Shown: positions 2,281 to 6,842, counted from the stretch's first letter. The stretch: 64,000 nucleotides of DNA from an uncultured Verrucomicrobiae bacterium (GCA_963719495.1 CAVRCI010000015.1:1-64000); one strand, 5' to 3'. Numbers and translations: made by a program. Notes: a model not told the origin generated them from the sequence alone.

Positions 2281-3336
2281 GGGGTCAGTCCATACTATTG
2301 ACATGTCTGACTCCGGTCTGAAATGATCGGGAATGGCGAGACCGTTGCGGGTTGAATACGGAGGTGCGCGGTATTATTTGATGAGCCGCGGAGATCGAAG
2401 GGAGAGTATTTTTTGGGATGAGAGGGATCGCGAGCGGTTCATTGAGACGCTGGCGACGATTTGCAAGAAGTGTGGCTGGATCGTCGATGCCTACTGCCTG
2501 ATGCAGAATCATTTTCATTTGGTCGTTGAAACACCACAGCCGATTCTCGTGCTTGGGATGAAGTGGCTACTGGGCACCTACACCATCCGATTCAACGTTC
2601 GCCACAAGCAGAGCGGGCATTTGTTTGCCGGGAGGTATAAATCGATCCTGGTCGATGAAAGCAGCGATCATTATCTACGAGTGGTCTGCGACTACGTGCA
2701 TCTCAATCCAGATCGTGCGGGGCTAATTCCCGATGACGAGCGGTTGGATTCGTATTCGTGGAGCAGTTTTCCGAAGTATTTGGCAAATCCTGACCAGCGA
2801 CCGACGTGGCTGAGGGTGACGCGTCTGCTCGGCGAGCACGGAATTGAGAAAGATGATCGCCAGGGGCGGCGGGAGTTTTCTGCTCGAATGGAGGCAAGGC
2901 GCGCGGATGGAGAGTCGAGCGAATGGCGTCAGATTCGGACTGGATGGCGCTACGGGGCGGAGGATTTTCGGGATCGAATCGATGAGTGGATCTCCCGAGC
3001 GAAACCGTCGGCTCGGAACCACGCGGCCAGCGAGCGTCGTGAAAGCGATGAAGCTCGCGCAAAGACTCTCATCGATGGCGAGCTCGCTAAAGTGGGTTGG
3101 GTCGAGGCCCGTTTGAATCGGGAGAACAAGGGGCATCCGGTCAAAGCGGTGATTGCCGAGGTTCTTCGAGCGCAGACGCCGATGACGATCGACTGGATCG
3201 CGCGGGAATTGAAAATGGGGTCGTGGCGGACGGTGCGGAACCTCCTGCAAGCTCGGCGGAAAAGGCGCGAGATTGAATCGTAAAAATCCCGACACGCATC
3301 AAATTACGTGTCAAAAGTATGGACTGACCCCGTTCC
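2281..3336 (+). mobile_element. RAYT-like element bounded by 23-bp inverted repeats
   Basis: Left ggggtcagtccatactattgaca (2281-2303) vs right tgtcaaaagtatggactgacccc (3309-3331), 22/23 complementary. Confidence 0.85.
2333..3283 (+). CDS. REP-associated tyrosine transposase-like (Y1/HUH) protein with C-terminal HTH-like extension
   Basis: MARPLR start, SRG motif, YCLMxNHFHL (HUH), GHLFxGRYKS, YVHLNP (catalytic Tyr), YSWSS. Confidence 0.92.
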   Translation: MARPLRVEYGGARYYLMSRGDRRESIFWDERDRERFIETLATICKKCGWIVDAYCLMQNHFHLVVETPQPILVLGMKWLLGTYTIRFNVRHKQSGHLFAGRYKSILVDESSDHYLRVVCDYVHLNPDRAGLIPDDERLDSYSWSSFPKYLANPDQRPTWLRVTRLLGEHGIEKDDRQGRREFSARMEARRADGESSEWRQIRTGWRYGAEDFRDRIDEWISRAKPSARNHAASERRESDEARAKTLIDGELAKVGWVEARLNRENKGHPVKAVIAEVLRAQTPMTIDWIARELKMGSWRTVRNLLQARRKRREIES

Positions 3337-3398
3337 TTGAATCGTGAGATCCCGACACGGATCAGACTTCGTGTCAAAAGTATGGACTGACCCCGTTC
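3337..3398 (+). repeat. 5'-truncated copy 2 of the RAYT element (last codons plus right end)
   Basis: ttgaatcg...gacacg-N10-cgtgtcaaaagtatggactgaccccgttc. Confidence 0.9.
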
Positions 3399-3399
3399 T

Positions 3400-3625
3400 C
3401 GTTTGAATCGGGAGAACAAGGGGCATCCGGTCAAAGCGGTGATTGCCGAGGTTCTTCGAGCGCAGACGCCGATGACGATCGACTGGATCGCGCGGGAATT
3501 GAAAATGGGGTCGTGGCGGACGGTGCGGAACCTCCTGCAAGCTCGGCGGAAAAGGCGCGAGATTGAATCGTAAAAATCCCGACACGCATCAAATTACGTG
3601 TCAAAAGTATGGACTGACCCCGTTC
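3400..3625 (+). pseudogene. 5'-truncated copy 3 of the RAYT element
   Basis: Identical to 3110-3335 by eye. Confidence 0.92.
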
Positions 3626-4410
3626 CGTGCTTGGGATGAAGTGGCTACTGGGCACCTACACCATCCGATTCAACGTTCGCCACAAGCAGAGCGGGCATTT
3701 GTTTGCCGGGAGGTATAAATCGATCCTGGTCGATGAAAGCAGCGATCATTATCTACGAGTGGTCTGCGACTACGTGCATCTCAATCCAGATCATGCGGGG
3801 CTTATCCCCGATGACGAGAGGCTGGATTCGTATTCGTGGAGCAGTTTTCCGAAGTATTTGGCAAATCCTGACCAGCGACCGACGTGGCTGAGGGTGACGC
3901 GTCTGCTCGGCGAGCACGGAATTAAGAAAGATGATCGCCAGGGGCGGCGGGAGTTTTCTGCTCGAATGGAGGCCAGACGCGCGGATGGAGAGTCGACCGA
4001 ATCCAGTCAGATTCTGACTGGATGGCGCTTCGGGGCTGAGGATTTCCGGGATCGGATCGATGAATGGATCTCCCGAGCGAAACCGTCGGCTCGGAATCAC
4101 GTGGCCAGCGAGCGGCGTGAAAACGATGAGGCTCGCGCAAAAAATCTCATCGATGGCGAACTCGCAAAATCGGGTTGGGACGAGGCTCGCTTGAATCGGG
4201 AGAGGAAGGGTCATCCGGTCAAAGTAGAGATTGCCGAGGTTCTTCGAGCGCAGACGCCGATGACGATCGACTGGATCGCGCGGGAGTTGAAAATGGGGTC
4301 GTGGCGGACGGTGCGCAACCTCCTGCAAGCTCGGCGGAAAAGGCGTGAGATTGAATCGTGAAATTCCCCGACACGAATAAAATTACGCGTCAAAAGTATG
4401 GACTGACCCC
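3626..4410 (+). pseudogene. 5'-truncated copy 4 of RAYT (lacks HUH, keeps YVHLNP; divergent 3' half)
   Basis: Begins at the equivalent of 2548; ORF 3627-4361; ends gtcaaaagtatggactgacccc. Confidence 0.92.
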
Positions 4411-4423
4411 ATTCCCGGGGAAT

Positions 4424-4484
4424 GGGGTCAGGTGTCAAAACTTGAATATCTGTCGAAGCAGATTGACTTTTGACTCCTGACCCC
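4424..4484. repeat. 61-bp REPIN-like mini-element with GGGGTCAG...CTGACCCC ends
   Basis: ggggtcaggtgtcaaaa ... ttttgactcctgacccc inverted arms. Confidence 0.8.
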
Positions 4485-4490
4485 ATCTCC

Positions 4491-5110
4491 CGGGGCTAAT
4501 CCCCGATGACGAGAGGCTGGATTCGTATCCGTGGAGCAGTTTTCCGAAGTATTTGGCAAATCCTGACCAGCGACCGACGTGGCTGAGGGTGACGCGTCTG
4601 CTCGGCGAGCACGGAATCGAGAAAGATGATCGCCAAGGACGGCGGGAGTTTTCTGCTCGAATGGAGGCAAGGCGCGCGGATGGAGAATCGACCGAATCGA
4701 GTCAGATTCGGACTGGATGGCGCTACGGGGCGGAGGATTTCCGAGATCGAATCGATGAATGGATCTCCGGAGCGAAACCGTCGGCTCGAAATCACGTGGC
4801 CAGCGAGCGGCGTGAAAACGATGAGGCTCGCGCGAAAAATCTCATCGATGGCGAACTCGCAAAATCGGGTTGGGACGAGGCTCGCTTGAATCGGGAGAGG
4901 AAGGGTCATCCGGTCAAAGTAGAGATTGCCGAGGTTCTTCGAGCGCAGACGCCGATGACGATCGACTGGATCGCGCGGGAGTTGAAAATGGGGTCGTGGC
5001 GGACGGTGCGCAACCTTCTGCAAGCTCGGCGGAAAAGGCGTGAGATTGAATCATGAAATTCCCCGACACGAATAAAATTACGTGTCAAAAGTATGGACTG
5101 ACCCCGTTCC
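4491..5110 (+). pseudogene. 5'-truncated copy 5 of RAYT (lacks HUH and catalytic Tyr)
   Basis: Begins at the equivalent of 2718; ends tgtcaaaagtatggactgaccccgttcc, followed by stutter cgttcc / agaccccgttcc. Confidence 0.92.
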
Positions 5111-5144
5111 CGTTCCAGACCCCGTTCCAATTCACGTTTAATGA

Positions 5145-6842
5145 TCATAAGAGTTCAACCGCTACCGCATGAGGCTGCCCATCAAACTCGGAAGGGTAAA
5201 ATTGAACGCTCTTCCCGGATACAATCAGCTGCTCAGGGCCACCTTCCATGACGTCTCTAAAGAGGAACCAATACTCCTTTCCGCCCTCAACAACAATAAA
5301 TCCCGATTGCTTCGAGAGTAGCCCTATCCTACCTCTGATTTTCTTCAGCCACTTGGCGTGGATGACCATCTCTTCGGAAATTTGGGTTGTCCGCTGGATC
5401 CACTCACCCTGAACCGTAGATCTCAACTTGTCGATTCGCTCCGTTTCCTTTATGTAGTGTGTCGGCAGGTCGTGGTTGATGCAGTAAGCATAGTCGAATG
5501 CATAAGTTGCTTTTTTTCTTCCAGCTCCGGCATCGACGATATTCAAGAGATTCGACTCATCCAACTTGGAAGCATACTTAAGGAGAATTGGCGATTTGTA
5601 AGGAAACTGAAATCTAAAGGTTGACCTGCTTCGACATACTTTTGCGATGTCTTCGAGAAATTCCCGCTCGCCCACCGAATATATTCCCTCTGAGTGGTGT
5701 GATTGAGTCTTTAAAGCCGTTAAAACATTTTCGGCACTGACCTTCTCTCCACCGCGAGTTGCGTCAAATGCTGCTGACATGGATTGGTCTAATGTTTGAA
5801 CCAAGCGTCGCATGTTGCCTCCGGAAGCAAATATAATTTGCTCAAGAGCATCGGCACATCCGTCTTCATGGAGTTGGAAGATGCTCCTGGGAAGAAATTT
5901 GGTCTGCGCTGCTCTAGTCACATATCTTTCGATTAATGCTAAAGCTTTGCGGCGAAATTGCTCATATCCGACATTGTCGAATACGTTTTCGCTCAACTCT
6001 ACTACATCGCCATAACGCGTCTCAAAAAGAATATCAGCCGGAGTATTCGGATAAATCGCAATTTTGGTTCGAATAAACTCTGTCGTTCTAAGCTGATTCA
6101 TTAGAGTCTCGAAAAGCGATAGCCCTCCAGAATCTGCAAAGAATGATTTTGCTAATGACCCTGCCTCGTCTAGTAGAAGCAATATCTTCCCGCCAGATGC
6201 CTCCAGTAGGTGTGAATACGCATGCTGAATGTCGCTAATTCCTGGCTGAGCTTTCGATTTTATCTCCGTGACATGCTCTTTTTCGTATTGGAATGATGCC
6301 GCAATTATATCATAATTAAGGCCGCCTTGGCTGGAAAAATTCTTTGTTATGACCTGACGATACTCTTCTGCCGTTAGCTTTATAAGCTTTTCTACCATCG
6401 GGGACAAGTTTGCAGGTCCAAGGCATCCATCGGGAAGGGCCTGTATCCCTTGGTGAATATCCGCCATTCGCGAAGCATTACGGATGTCTTTATACGCTTG
6501 TATTATCCCCTCGATGATTCGAATGATTATACCATTGTATATCTTTATAGGCTCACGAATGTGCTGGAACTCGTTTAGTTTTATCGAAATGGGTATGATG
6601 GGTGGTTCTTCATTCAAGAGCGCGGGGACGATTCCGAACATATGATACGCGAAGTTAGCTCTCAGATACATTGTTTTACCTGATCCCATCCTTCCTTTTA
6701 TGATCGTATTTCCGAAACCGAATGGGTTGTCTAGTTCGCGGAGCGGATCGACGAAGAGATCGAGAATTTCTGACAAAGGGTAATCGTCAGCATTTCGACT
6801 TCGAAACGGTCTACTTTCAAACGCTGTTCGTATATCAGTCAT
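5145..6842 (-). CDS. P-loop ATPase (ORC/CDC6-like or STAND-like) with C-terminal cold-shock-like OB domain
   Basis: Walker A GRMGSGKT, Walker B LLLLDEAG, SGGNMRR; C-terminus GRI...SGFIVVEGGKEYWF...GKSVQF...AVAV; visibly AT-rich relative to flanks. Confidence 0.75.
   Translation of the reverse strand: MTDIRTAFESRPFRSRNADDYPLSEILDLFVDPLRELDNPFGFGNTIIKGRMGSGKTMYLRANFAYHMFGIVPALLNEEPPIIPISIKLNEFQHIREPIKIYNGIIIRIIEGIIQAYKDIRNASRMADIHQGIQALPDGCLGPANLSPMVEKLIKLTAEEYRQVITKNFSSQGGLNYDIIAASFQYEKEHVTEIKSKAQPGISDIQHAYSHLLEASGGKILLLLDEAGSLAKSFFADSGGLSLFETLMNQLRTTEFIRTKIAIYPNTPADILFETRYGDVVELSENVFDNVGYEQFRRKALALIERYVTRAAQTKFLPRSIFQLHEDGCADALEQIIFASGGNMRRLVQTLDQSMSAAFDATRGGEKVSAENVLTALKTQSHHSEGIYSVGEREFLEDIAKVCRSRSTFRFQFPYKSPILLKYASKLDESNLLNIVDAGAGRKKATYAFDYAYCINHDLPTHYIKETERIDKLRSTVQGEWIQRTTQISEEMVIHAKWLKKIRGRIGLLSKQSGFIVVEGGKEYWFLFRDVMEGGPEQLIVSGKSVQFYPSEFDGQPHAVAVELL

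Follow-up and report, generated by a model that had tools for sequence, protein, structure and literature searches.

A RAYT-like Y1-HUH transposase gene trailed by an array of end-anchored partial copies in an uncultured Verrucomicrobiae bacterium

RAYT genes of groups 2 and 3 are described as single-copy, vertically inherited and domesticated, and what is known of the way in which RAYT enzymes spread or amplify REP, BIME and REPIN sequences comes solely from models and in-vitro cleavage. One-ended rolling-circle transposition yields products whose variable end extends past the element and which land at a new site. Head-to-tail arrays of 5'-truncated copies with a constant 3' end are formed by the non-LTR retrotransposons HeT-A and TART at Drosophila telomeres. 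Section 25 of Ton-Hoang et al. 2012 (PMC3333891) calls the mechanism and frequency of REP/BIME spread and amplification unknown, mentions tnpAREP genes or fragments "sequestered" in BIMEs and describes no rows of 5'-truncated copies. It offers two models, namely excision-integration (Fig. 7A) and an amplification of BIMEs by nick, extension and a second 3'-OH, which yields an extra unit (Fig. 7B). According to PMC8266576, TnpAREP cleavage yields a 3'-OH and a tyrosine-5'-phosphate link that can be resolved by the 3'-OH of any oligonucleotide supplied, and the enzyme cuts 5' or 3' of the REP and also at some distant sites in vitro. Nunvar et al. 2010 (PMC2817692) suggested that replication could be primed into the rayt gene. 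PMC3333891 also describes IS200/IS605 elements as having ends that are not inverted repeats and transposases of ~130-150 aa, and IS91, ISCR and Helitron elements as able to pick up neighbouring DNA. Among the open-literature titles and abstracts listed for RAYT/REPIN or HUH/IS605 tandem copies, no prior description of rows of truncated RAYT genes was found, and the combination of Y1 transposase and Verrucomicrobia had no match in that literature.

The locus described here lies in a 64,000-nt stretch of DNA (the window; GCA_963719495.1, CAVRCI010000015.1:1-64000) from an uncultured Verrucomicrobiae bacterium. The original prediction, made from the sequence alone, had proposed an intact Y1-HUH gene between inverted repeats, followed by partial copies that share one terminus and differ in their 5' breakpoints. 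The array of a Y1-HUH gene and trailing end-anchored partial copies is real, and so are the fixed terminus and the variable breakpoints. The master copy, within 2281-3336, contains an intact 316-aa transposase ORF (2333-3283, plus strand; PF01797) between repeats at 2281-2306 and 3306-3331 that were found by the repeat finder to be inverted, 26 nt long and 92% complementary. The left repeat (2281-2306, minus strand, GGGGTCAGTCCATACTATTGACATGT; pair I2) is equivalent in type to the right end when read along its own strand, and shows no stutter inside the window. The right end, GTCAAAAGTATGGACTGACCCC, together with the 5-nt flank GTTCC, occupies 3310-3336 on the plus strand, as seen in the sequence and by the repeat finder. 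No tnpB gene is found inside the element. A small hairpin, GACACG-N10-CGTGTC, is predicted in the 3' untranslated part (3291-3312, plus strand) with a z of only -1.2; it is present in each longer unit of the array and missing from the second genomic copy on contig C13, whose 3' tail differs from that of the window master.

On the 3' side of the master lie 5'-truncated copies of 63, 227, 790 and 620 nt and then two tiny ones, with boundaries given here so as to include the short flank. Every partial copy closes with ...GGACTGACCCC and the same flank of 5-6 nt, and a 53-nt terminus is found in five copies (repeat family D4: 3288-3340, 3351-3403, 3578-3630, 4367-4419, and 5062-5114). All units are on the plus strand. 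Unit 1 (3337-3399) consists of 58 nt of the right end plus GTTCT and is 77% identical to the master over 62 nt (blastn, 3337-3410: 85% over 75 nt). Unit 2 (3400-3626; repeat family D1, 100%) is made up of the terminal ~222 nt of the element and the flank GTTCC; no difference separates 3400-3629 from master positions 3110-3339 (blastn, 99.6% over 230 nt), while the bases that precede it (TCT, 3397-3399) differ from those of the present master (CCC, 3107-3109), which points to gene conversion. Unit 3 (3627-4416) comprises the terminal ~784 nt of the element, from codon ~73 to codon 316, plus ATTCCC, matches the master at 93.9% over 790 nt (3626-4415, blastn), and retains an open frame of 244 aa (3627-4361) without in-frame stop. 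Unit 4 (4492-5110), the last ~614 nt (codons ~128-316) plus GTTCC, matches at 92.4% over 620 nt (4491-5110, blastn) and is likewise open. The closing stutter copies are as predicted: C+GTTCC (cgttcc, 5111-5116) and AGACCCC+GTTCC (agaccccgttcc, 5117-5128; repeat family D7, both within 5111-5128), after which the true right flank (AATTCACG...) begins. The claim that each unit starts shortly after a terminus holds at a distance of 5-6 nt past the preceding CTGACCCC, with the exception of the step from unit 3 to unit 4, where it fails. A palindromic mini-element of 75 nt, GGGAATGGGGTCAGG...CCTGACCCC, with its own flank ATCTCCC, sits there (4418-4491, no strand assigned; inverted-repeat pairs I1 and I7) and was absent from the first description. 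As single-stranded DNA it folds at -27.2 kcal/mol (z -7.7), with 0 of 200 shuffles equally good.

The 316-aa protein matches PF01797 (Y1_Tnp) with E 1.3e-11, its score of 45.2 bits exceeding the cut-off of 23, and this is its only Pfam match; no IS91/Y2 or RepHel-type domain was returned by the scan. The HUH residues H60 and H62 and the motif Y121-x-H123-L124-N125, with the catalytic tyrosine, are invariant across 34 aligned homologues. The predicted model (pLDDT 88.8) suggests a RAYT-like N-terminal part of ~155 residues and an all-helical extension (~160-316) outside any assigned family. The nearest PDB match of this predicted fold is 4ER8, TnpAREP bound to a REP hairpin (E 6.5e-6, TM 0.74 on the target, rmsd 2.6), followed by the IS200, ISDra2, and IS608 transposases, all matches of the predicted fold being of IS200/RAYT type. 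Searched by sequence, the solved structures yielded no informative hit, the one match being a LOV protein at E 0.16. The protein scores 41.2 bits with the NCBIfam RAYT model NF047646 (cut-off 80) and 17.9 bits with the IS200 model NF033573 (cut-off 55), and some relatives are named "REP element-mobilizing transposase RayT" by their sources. The predicted fold comes nearest to that of E. coli TnpAREP, a RAYT, and we take the locus to be a RAYT-like Y1-HUH element.

This kinship extends to the arrangement of the locus, which resembles a REPtron in having a Y1-HUH enzyme with a predicted fold nearest 4ER8, a gene bracketed by a short repeat in inverted orientation, which recurs dispersed and in tandem clusters across the genome, and tandem units added beside an existing copy, for which the published model predicts an enzyme-defined boundary and a second 3'-OH. 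It differs from RAYTs in that the protein is twice as long, with a helical C-terminal extension of ~160 aa, falls below the NCBIfam RAYT cut-off (41 vs 80 bits), is encoded by a multi-copy gene, and is accompanied by ends whose consensus carries no GTAG tag. Unlike RAYT groups 2 and 3 it is multi-copy, yet the window copy stands at a locus orthologous to that in a congeneric genome (G001). The expectation of a single-copy, immobile RAYT does not agree with this genome, which holds six long Y1 paralogues, two of them, at different loci, 95.8% alike. The units also differ from REP and BIME amplification products: they are variable and contain up to 790 nt of the transposase gene instead of whole REP or BIME units. 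With IS200/IS605 elements the locus shares Y1-HUH chemistry, a putative cut a few nucleotides from a terminal structure, the absence of target duplication around whole elements, and the placement of all six long Y1 genes on the G-rich strand, the lagging-strand template; it differs in its 26-nt inverted-repeat ends, its 316-aa protein, and the lack of tnpB. An analogy with IS91, ISCR, and Helitrons had been drawn in the original prediction, and an HUH enzyme with one fixed and one variable end is indeed common to both, as is the ability to pick up neighbouring DNA. The analogy breaks down in that the protein carries PF01797 only and has a predicted fold nearest TnpAREP, and in that the partial copies seen are shorter than the element and stay beside its own end, on both sides. 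HeT-A and TART differ as well, since no reverse transcriptase is seen here and left-end arrays and units of 6-8 nt misfit target-primed reverse transcription.

The pattern recurs throughout the genome. The 11-mer GGACTGACCCC occurs 73 times in 34 clusters in 4.54 Mb, against 5.6 expected from base composition and 3.7 under a first-order Markov model. Each of the six long Y1 paralogues is stuttered at one end or both, and dozens of miniature non-coding elements with the 11-mer end also carry stutter. With the true end motif, our parser found 62 junctions of the type "partial end + flank" in 37 arrays of this genome, compared with 1, 1, 3, and 1 for four control motifs of like composition. The carried flank measures 4 nt in 24 and 5 nt in 26 of these 62 junctions, and flanks of up to 10-12 nt also occur, the cut distance not being strictly fixed. 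A cut a few nucleotides outside ...GACCCC, as originally proposed, would be the simplest reading. When loci from other genomes are added, the total is 115 junctions, of which 74 carry units of 6-8 nt and the remainder trail off to 83 nt; the script used allowed unit spacings of <=130 nt, and 17 of the 115 are plain tandem repeats. Microhomology is 0 nt in 42 of the 115 and <=2 nt in 85. A CT rule (C before and T after the boundary), as for TnpAREP, was sought, and no consistent dinucleotide was found at either boundary. In the 42 unambiguous junctions, to which some arrays contribute more than once, the unit is preceded by C in 18 cases, T in 13, A in 7, and G in 4, and the flank closes with A in 22.

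The family-wide consensus of 136 ends is TGTCAATAGTNAGGACTGAC[C/A]CC, with a conserved 22-nt end ...GTCAAT-N8-CTGAC[C/A]CC and neither a GTAG nor a CGTC tag. Of the end hairpin only the 4-bp GTCA/TGAC stem is constant, the next pair being a conserved T-C mismatch in most ends; the stem, of 4-6 bp at most, has no covariation support in the 136 ends, and the two ends in the window fold no better than shuffled sequences (z -1.2 to -0.07). Outside the ends the flanks are T-rich, with T at +1 in 103 of 136. Flanks are uniform within an array, and whole elements are not surrounded by a target duplication. No fixed target word emerged, and no empty site was found among relatives that were too distant for the comparison; the left flank (1300-2280) matches a single relative, at 69%, elsewhere in its contig.

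Among homologous ends in other Verrucomicrobiota assemblies, 21 of 135 are stuttered (60 of 3200 for random 8-mers), 11 on the left and 10 on the right. Long arrays occur in two congeneric genomes. In G001, at the orthologous locus, which a ribonucleotide reductase gene adjoins, the master gene encodes a protein with 93% aa identity to that of the window and is followed by units of 793, 160, 407, 234, and ~30 nt with the same terminus, the 407-nt unit standing outside the 160-nt unit without containing it. This array also contains the mini-element seen in the window and a PDC-M07A-like ATPase cassette. The two masters are 92.0% identical at the nucleotide level, compared with 93.0% for the neighbouring host gene. 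In G005 the arrangement is mirrored at the left end, where aaaa+GGGGTCGGTCC precedes interior stretches of 24, 25, and 710 nt, after which comes the full gene. The recurrence at homologous elements that had been anticipated is thus found, whereas the restriction to the element's "own end", also part of the prediction, is contradicted by the mirror-image arrays and the stuttered miniature elements. Partial copies of at least 35 nt elsewhere are end-anchored in 8 of 8 cases, in 7 of the 63 loci having both ends, and arrays of 7-16 tiny units occur, for example at L055 and L014. A protein-level search for long gene fragments gave a second match in 1 of 80 loci of other genomes; long arrays may collapse in short-read assemblies, so this count is no evidence of absence. 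The family is very large (4780 clusters at E <= 1e-10 among 6365 candidates scored), multi-copy in Verrucomicrobiota and apparently active.

One may ask whether an assembler misjoined repeats. Reads of one run (share of words 0.23) gave a single 762-nt contig over 2575-3336, whose end coincides with the final base of the first flank (3336), at the first junction. Nothing in these reads or in those of two further runs of the same study bridges any junction, the only additional piece being one of 33 nt on the mini-element. Even so, an artefact is hardly credible: the units differ by 0-23% among themselves and have distinct and precise junctions, and the architecture recurs within this genome at another locus (C13), in two further members of the genus, and in contigs from many unrelated MAG projects.

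Starting from the anatomy, recurrence, boundary statistics, and protein kinship established above, we give roughly even odds (about 0.5) to the reading that the array is a by-product of the enzyme acting at the element end through a nick, primed synthesis and rejoining, with later reshaping. The enzyme would nick a single strand at a more or less constant position, usually 4-6 nt beyond the end; the cut strand would read 5'-flank-GGGGTCAG... into the element, and the enzyme, as HUH chemistry suggests, would stay tyrosine-linked to its 5' end. The free 3'-OH of the outside flank could then prime host DNA synthesis back into the element. After a variable distance the 3'-OH of the new strand would attack the tyrosine-DNA bond, leaving the old strand resealed after one additional "flank + end + variable interior" copy. 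Repetition of these steps, at either end and on opposite strands, would give head-to-tail units with one boundary fixed and the other variable, and the array might later be reshaped by gene conversion, mini-element insertion, and recombination with diverged alleles of the locus. The fixed outer boundary 4-6 nt outside the end, the free inner boundary, and the scarcity of microhomology fit such a model, and the array polarity fits HUH chemistry without further assumptions. The cut strand, the exact cut site and the involvement of synthesis are the parts that we infer. Since a mechanism of this type is already in print for REP/BIME amplification (PMC3333891), the locus does not represent an undescribed system, as had been supposed.

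Plain cis copying from the present master does not explain the order and identity of the units, nor the units from diverged variants. Unit 1, which adjoins the master, is 77% identical to it, and unit 2, farther out, 100%. Unit 3 is 98.4% identical to the G001 master (561 nt) versus 92.9% to its own, and unit 4 96.6% versus 92.5%, at odds with the earlier view that all units were copied from the present master; both look imported. Between units 3 and 4 there are 15 synonymous and 5 non-synonymous differences, and the changes unique to truncated copies number 8 synonymous versus 1 non-synonymous (P = 1.4e-4 under neutrality), a predominance that would not be expected of dead copies decaying in place. 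The misfit of order and identity obliges the model to take on extra assumptions, namely master turnover, gene conversion, and allelic recombination. Order and identity were also considered as an arbiter between models and dropped, given gene conversion at unit 2 and the seemingly imported units 3 and 4. Foreign pieces within arrays, that is, the mini-element of the window and G001 and, at C13:500679, a unit that belongs to another end type and bears the local flank, count against the plain model. So do the cut distance that varies, the want of a common dinucleotide at the boundaries, and the weak stem of the end.

These same features would be accounted for if truncated pieces were cut or copied and pasted, a second, loosely specified upstream cut freeing a single-stranded piece or circle [X...end+flank], and if the array were a landing pad at "end + flank" sites for pieces possibly derived from another unit, lineage, or element. 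The published excision-integration model is of this kind. It would cover unit 2 beyond the divergent unit 1, the diverged variants with their synonymous-dominated differences, and the heterologous pieces; the near-coincident starts in the window and G001 (785/793 and 226/234 nt from the end) would be preferred second sites, in keeping with the distant cuts made by TnpAREP in vitro. The inner boundaries, however, lack a consistent dinucleotide or motif, the prevalent units of 6-8 nt would place the second cut within the very end that the enzyme should hold, and pieces from other loci should bring foreign flanks, whereas flanks are uniform within arrays. Units 3 and 4 may instead have come by homologous recombination with a G001-like allele, which is possible because the locus is orthologous, beside the ribonucleotide reductase gene. 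We consider the pasting of pieces, and the landing pad with it, less likely than primed synthesis.

Units from functional, diverged variants and whole foreign mini-elements would also be left behind if complete elements inserted head to tail and were then trimmed by end-anchored adjacent deletion or imprecise excision, the units being footprints of these losses; the ends do attract other end-bearing DNA. That history asks for one full insertion and one deletion per unit, hence for 7-16 whole insertions at one spot in the arrays of as many tiny units, and none of the 80 + 30 loci examined contained two full-length copies in tandem; we judge it quite improbable. A purely host-caused origin has a similarly small chance in our estimation. 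Here an end-bound protein or DNA structure would stall the fork and the nascent strand would switch template backwards, with no transposase catalysis, so that one boundary is fixed and the other variable. Microhomology of 1-2 nt in slight excess of chance (the chance level being an estimate) and the very strong GC skew of the genome, in which the strand reading ...end-flank is G-rich at 32 of 46 ends (p = 0.011), would suit it. Yet 42 of 115 junctions have no microhomology, arrays are no commoner in one orientation than in the other (12/32 vs 6/14, Fisher p = 0.75), the end forms at best a weak hairpin, and the polarity is already met by HUH chemistry.

In practice, the array pattern explains why these genes sit on short metagenome contigs and why truncated "transposase" ORFs pile up beside intact ones. 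The arrays look like a natural record of reaction polarity, with one boundary 4-6 nt outside the 22-nt end and the other free, on both strands, and in a large, apparently active family the published model gives testable predictions on the strand, the distance, and the need for synthesis. A wider reading, which we consider unlikely in its joint form, makes the arrays a working part of a phylum-wide RAYT-like system that combines nick-primed, end-anchored copying, purifying selection on open longer copies, and ends serving as landing pads. The longer copies would then encode HUH-less, C-terminal helical proteins that could regulate or inhibit the transposase, and the repeated ends would capture mini-elements and defence genes, of which the PDC-M07A-like cassette in G001 may be an example.

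The array of partial copies that follows the transposase gene in the window is real. The intact element, here called the master (2281-3336), carries 26-nt inverted repeats at 2281-2306 and 3306-3331 that are 92% complementary, and contains an intact open reading frame of 316 aa (2333-3283) with a Pfam Y1_Tnp match (PF01797, E 1.3e-11). It is followed by unit 1 (3337-3399; 85% identity to the master over 75 nt), unit 2 (3400-3626; 99.6% over 230 nt), unit 3 (3627-4416; 93.9% over 790 nt) and unit 4 (4492-5110; 92.4% over 620 nt). The 5′ starts of the four units are unequal, and all share the terminus ...GTCAAAAGTATGGACTGACCCC followed by GTTCC, GTTCT or ATTCCC; the row closes with two tiny units, C+GTTCC and AGACCCC+GTTCC, at 5111-5128. 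The original prediction of an intact Y1-HUH gene and four partial copies with a fixed terminus stands; what it overlooked is a 75-nt palindromic mini-element between units 3 and 4 (4418-4491; fold -27.2 kcal/mol, z -7.7).

We also noticed a decayed sequence at 2213-2262, just upstream of the left inverted repeat, with similarity to the hairpin and end of unit 1 (GACACGGATC...; 79% over 19 nt). An older end, next to the present master, may have left it behind. A second member of the system is found at 775-915, where a GGCATTC-type end lies against a miniature element of ~100 nt (GAGTCAGTCCGTTCATTGGTTCA...TTCTGAACCAATGAACGGTCTGACCCC) that has a stutter of its own, that is, a short partial element end repeated with local flank (tccca|tgacccc|tccca).

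The same pattern extends through the 4.54-Mb, 16-contig source genome, in which the window belongs to contig C15. A second full copy of the element (C13:435481-436530) is 95.8% identical and carries short additional termini of its own on either side. Six of the 12 PF01797 matches are long genes (311-354 aa), and all six have stutters on at least one end, composed of end pieces of variable length, each with the same local 4-6 nt. There are 73 instances of the outer 11-mer GGACTGACCCC, grouped into 34 clusters, where 3.7-5.6 would be expected; it terminates at least three kinds of end, mostly on miniature non-coding elements of ~100-400 nt, many of which are stuttered as well. Given the true end motif, a parser for junctions of flank plus partial end returned 62 junctions in 37 arrays; given four control motifs, it returned 1, 1, 3 and 1.

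Several other features of this genome were observed along the way. An element of ~391 nt with its own inverted repeats (GAATGGCACTGC...GCAGCGCCATTCC) is present at C6:139150-139720, C6:142796-143186 and C13:500600-501420, with one side directly against GGACTGACCC and the other side followed by GGACTGACCCC; perhaps this is a separate element whose target is the 11-mer, or else one by which the 11-mer is duplicated. Nested miniature elements, stuttered on both sides, are located at C13:501034-501340. GC skew is very pronounced (about +/-0.2 in 50-kb bins), with all six long Y1 genes on the G-rich strand, and the strand reading from end into flank is the G-rich one in 32 of 46 GGACTGACCC-type ends (p = 0.011, uncorrected for general gene-orientation bias).

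Within the 62 junctions, the flank carried per unit is 4 nt in 24 and 5 nt in 26. Flanks as long as 10-12 nt are also seen among the arrays. Addition of the fetched loci to the source genome, with a spacing limit of 130 nt, gave 115 junctions, a count that takes in 17 plain tandem repeats without flank. Unit length in this set peaks at 6-8 nt (74 junctions), which corresponds to the start of ...TGACCCC, with lesser groups near 12-13, 23-26 and 32-38 nt, and no constant dinucleotide was found at either boundary. Whole elements lack a target duplication, and their two flanks differ. Read on the strand 5′-flank-GGGGTCAG... into the element, the unit start is constant and the unit stop is variable; left and right ends share this polarity, on opposite strands.

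Scanning one genome per species confirmed 459 relatives, of which the best 80 loci (50-57% amino acid identity) lie on contigs labelled Verrucomicrobiota almost throughout. Their end consensus, from 136 ends, is TGTCAATAGTNAGGACTGAC[C/A]CC followed by a T-rich flank. The 8-mer made of the last 3 nt of the end and the first 5 nt of the flank recurs within 300 nt at 21 of 135 ends (20 of 74 loci), compared with 60 of 3200 random 8-mers from the same loci. Some three of these 21 appear coincidental, counts that pool kin or several arrays from one locus are non-independent, and the relatives are assemblies of unchecked accuracy; the flagged unpublished genome G016 underlies none of the claims. The stuttered ends are divided almost equally between left (11) and right (10). 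Every one of the eight partial copies of at least 35 nt (35-113 nt), which come from 7 of the 63 loci where both ends are present, is anchored at an element end. Long gene-containing units were not seen in the best 80 loci, where a second protein match occurs once; long arrays may have collapsed there because these are mostly short-read assemblies. Contigs of two further genomes (G007 and G009) carry many fragments of only the first ~80-108 residues of the Y1 family (e.g., 1-96, 1-108, 1-93, 2-96 and 1-104). These could reflect a preferred stopping point of left-end units or a non-autonomous derivative, or they may be cut by contig ends, as several are on short contigs.

In the congeneric genome G001, a master with 93% amino acid identity is followed by units of 793, 160, 407, 234 and ~30 nt with the same terminus as in the window, the flank GTTC[C/T] and the same palindromic mini-element inside the array. 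The two loci are orthologous, since a class II ribonucleotide reductase gene adjoins both. A second congeneric genome, G005, shows the mirror image at a left end: aaaa+GGGGTCGGTCC, then 24, 25 and 710 nt of interior, then the full gene. The original prediction, which was open to refutation by homologous loci with random ends or without arrays, therefore survives this comparison.

The slot between array and reductase gene in the window (5145-6842, minus strand) holds an ORC/CDC6-like ATPase (PF24389, E 2e-9) without a PADLOC match, and the corresponding G001 slot (C11:278500-287500) holds a different gene of 368 aa. Inside the G001 array are an AAA_21 ATPase matching the candidate defence family PDC-M07A (E 4.8e-65) and a 206-aa partner. 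The locus resembles a hotspot of variable defence-gene content. The G001 reductase gene (C11:274800-279400) matches the window protein in three pieces in different frames; these apparent frameshifts may be indel errors of a long-read assembly.

Across 34 aligned homologues of the transposase, H60, H62 and Y121-x-H-L-N do not vary. The AlphaFold model is confident (pLDDT 88.8). Of the solved structures, it best matches 4ER8 (TM 0.74 on target, rmsd 2.6, 155 columns), in which E. coli TnpAREP holds a REP hairpin; the IS200, ISDra2 and IS608 transposases come next. The protein misses the NCBIfam cut-offs for RAYT (41 vs 80 bits) and IS200 (18 vs 55 bits). Residues ~160-316 are helical and match no assigned family, the sole hint being a weak HTH-like match at 271-310 (E 0.013). 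The family comprises 4780 clusters at E <= 1e-10 among 6365 candidates scored, with members variously named "transposase" or "RayT" at source.

After cleavage, HUH enzymes stay attached to the 5′ phosphate, and a 3′-OH is left. Any oligonucleotide 3′-OH can resolve the TnpAREP link in vitro and become fused to the cut 5′ end (PMC8266576), such 3′-OH groups were suggested by Nunvar et al. to prime replication into the rayt gene (PMC2817692), and nick, primed synthesis and rejoining form the published model of BIME amplification (Ton-Hoang et al. 2012, PMC3333891, Fig. 7B). The arrays look like products of this reaction with a second boundary that would be free instead of fixed, a reading to which we give a probability of about 0.5. 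Truncated pieces might instead be excised or copied and then pasted beside an end, which is a possible but doubtful route. Whole elements inserted in tandem and then trimmed by end-anchored deletion are an unlikely source, and equally so is fork stalling with template switching without any catalysis; of the 115 junctions, 42 have no microhomology, 23 have 1 nt and 20 have 2 nt. Misassembly is very improbable. Reads of one run gave a contig of 762 nt over the master (2575-3336) that ends exactly on the last base of the first flank and bridges no junction.

The unit identities argue against simple copying in cis. Unit 1, which adjoins the master, is 77% identical to it and unit 2 is 100% identical, while the bases just before unit 2 (TCT, 3397-3399) mismatch the corresponding place in the master (CCC, 3107-3109), where units 3 and 4 have CTCG; an identical body behind mismatched bases suggests gene conversion. 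Both unit 3 and unit 4 are closer to the G001 master (98.4% and 96.6%) than to their own (92.9% and 92.5%). The two masters differ by 8.0%, similar to the neighbouring reductase gene (7.0%, dS 0.28), which suggests vertical inheritance of the masters and import of units 3 and 4, most likely through recombination between this locus and a G001-like allele of it.

None of the seven truncated copies examined has lost the reading frame. In the window these frames stay open for 244, 167 and 56 aa (3627-4361, 4553-5056 and 3403-3573), without the HUH motif but still with the helical C-terminal domain. Between units 3 and 4 there are 15 synonymous and 5 non-synonymous differences (dN/dS 0.10), and changes unique to truncated copies are 8 synonymous and 1 non-synonymous (P = 1.4e-4 under neutrality). 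Judged from these substitutions, either the units would be snapshots of functional variants or the truncated frames would themselves be constrained. Foreign pieces lie within the arrays, which shows that the ends also attract insertions.

The system resembles REPtrons: it has a Y1 fold and inverted repeats on its flanks, occurs in dispersed as well as tandem copies, and grows in tandem. Unlike the described RAYT groups, the present family falls below the curated model cut-off, is not single copy and has no GTAG tag. The element also lacks defining features of IS200/IS605 and of IS91/Helitron, and the likeness to the latter that was originally proposed is not upheld. Related cases, such as tnpAREP fragments in BIME arrays, may be contained in the supplementary figures of PMC3333891 and PMC2817692. 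As far as our search of titles and abstracts reaches, what is new is the family itself with its long C-terminal extension, the end-anchored units of variable length that take in the greater part of the transposase gene, the mirror symmetry between left and right ends, and the recurrence across a phylum.
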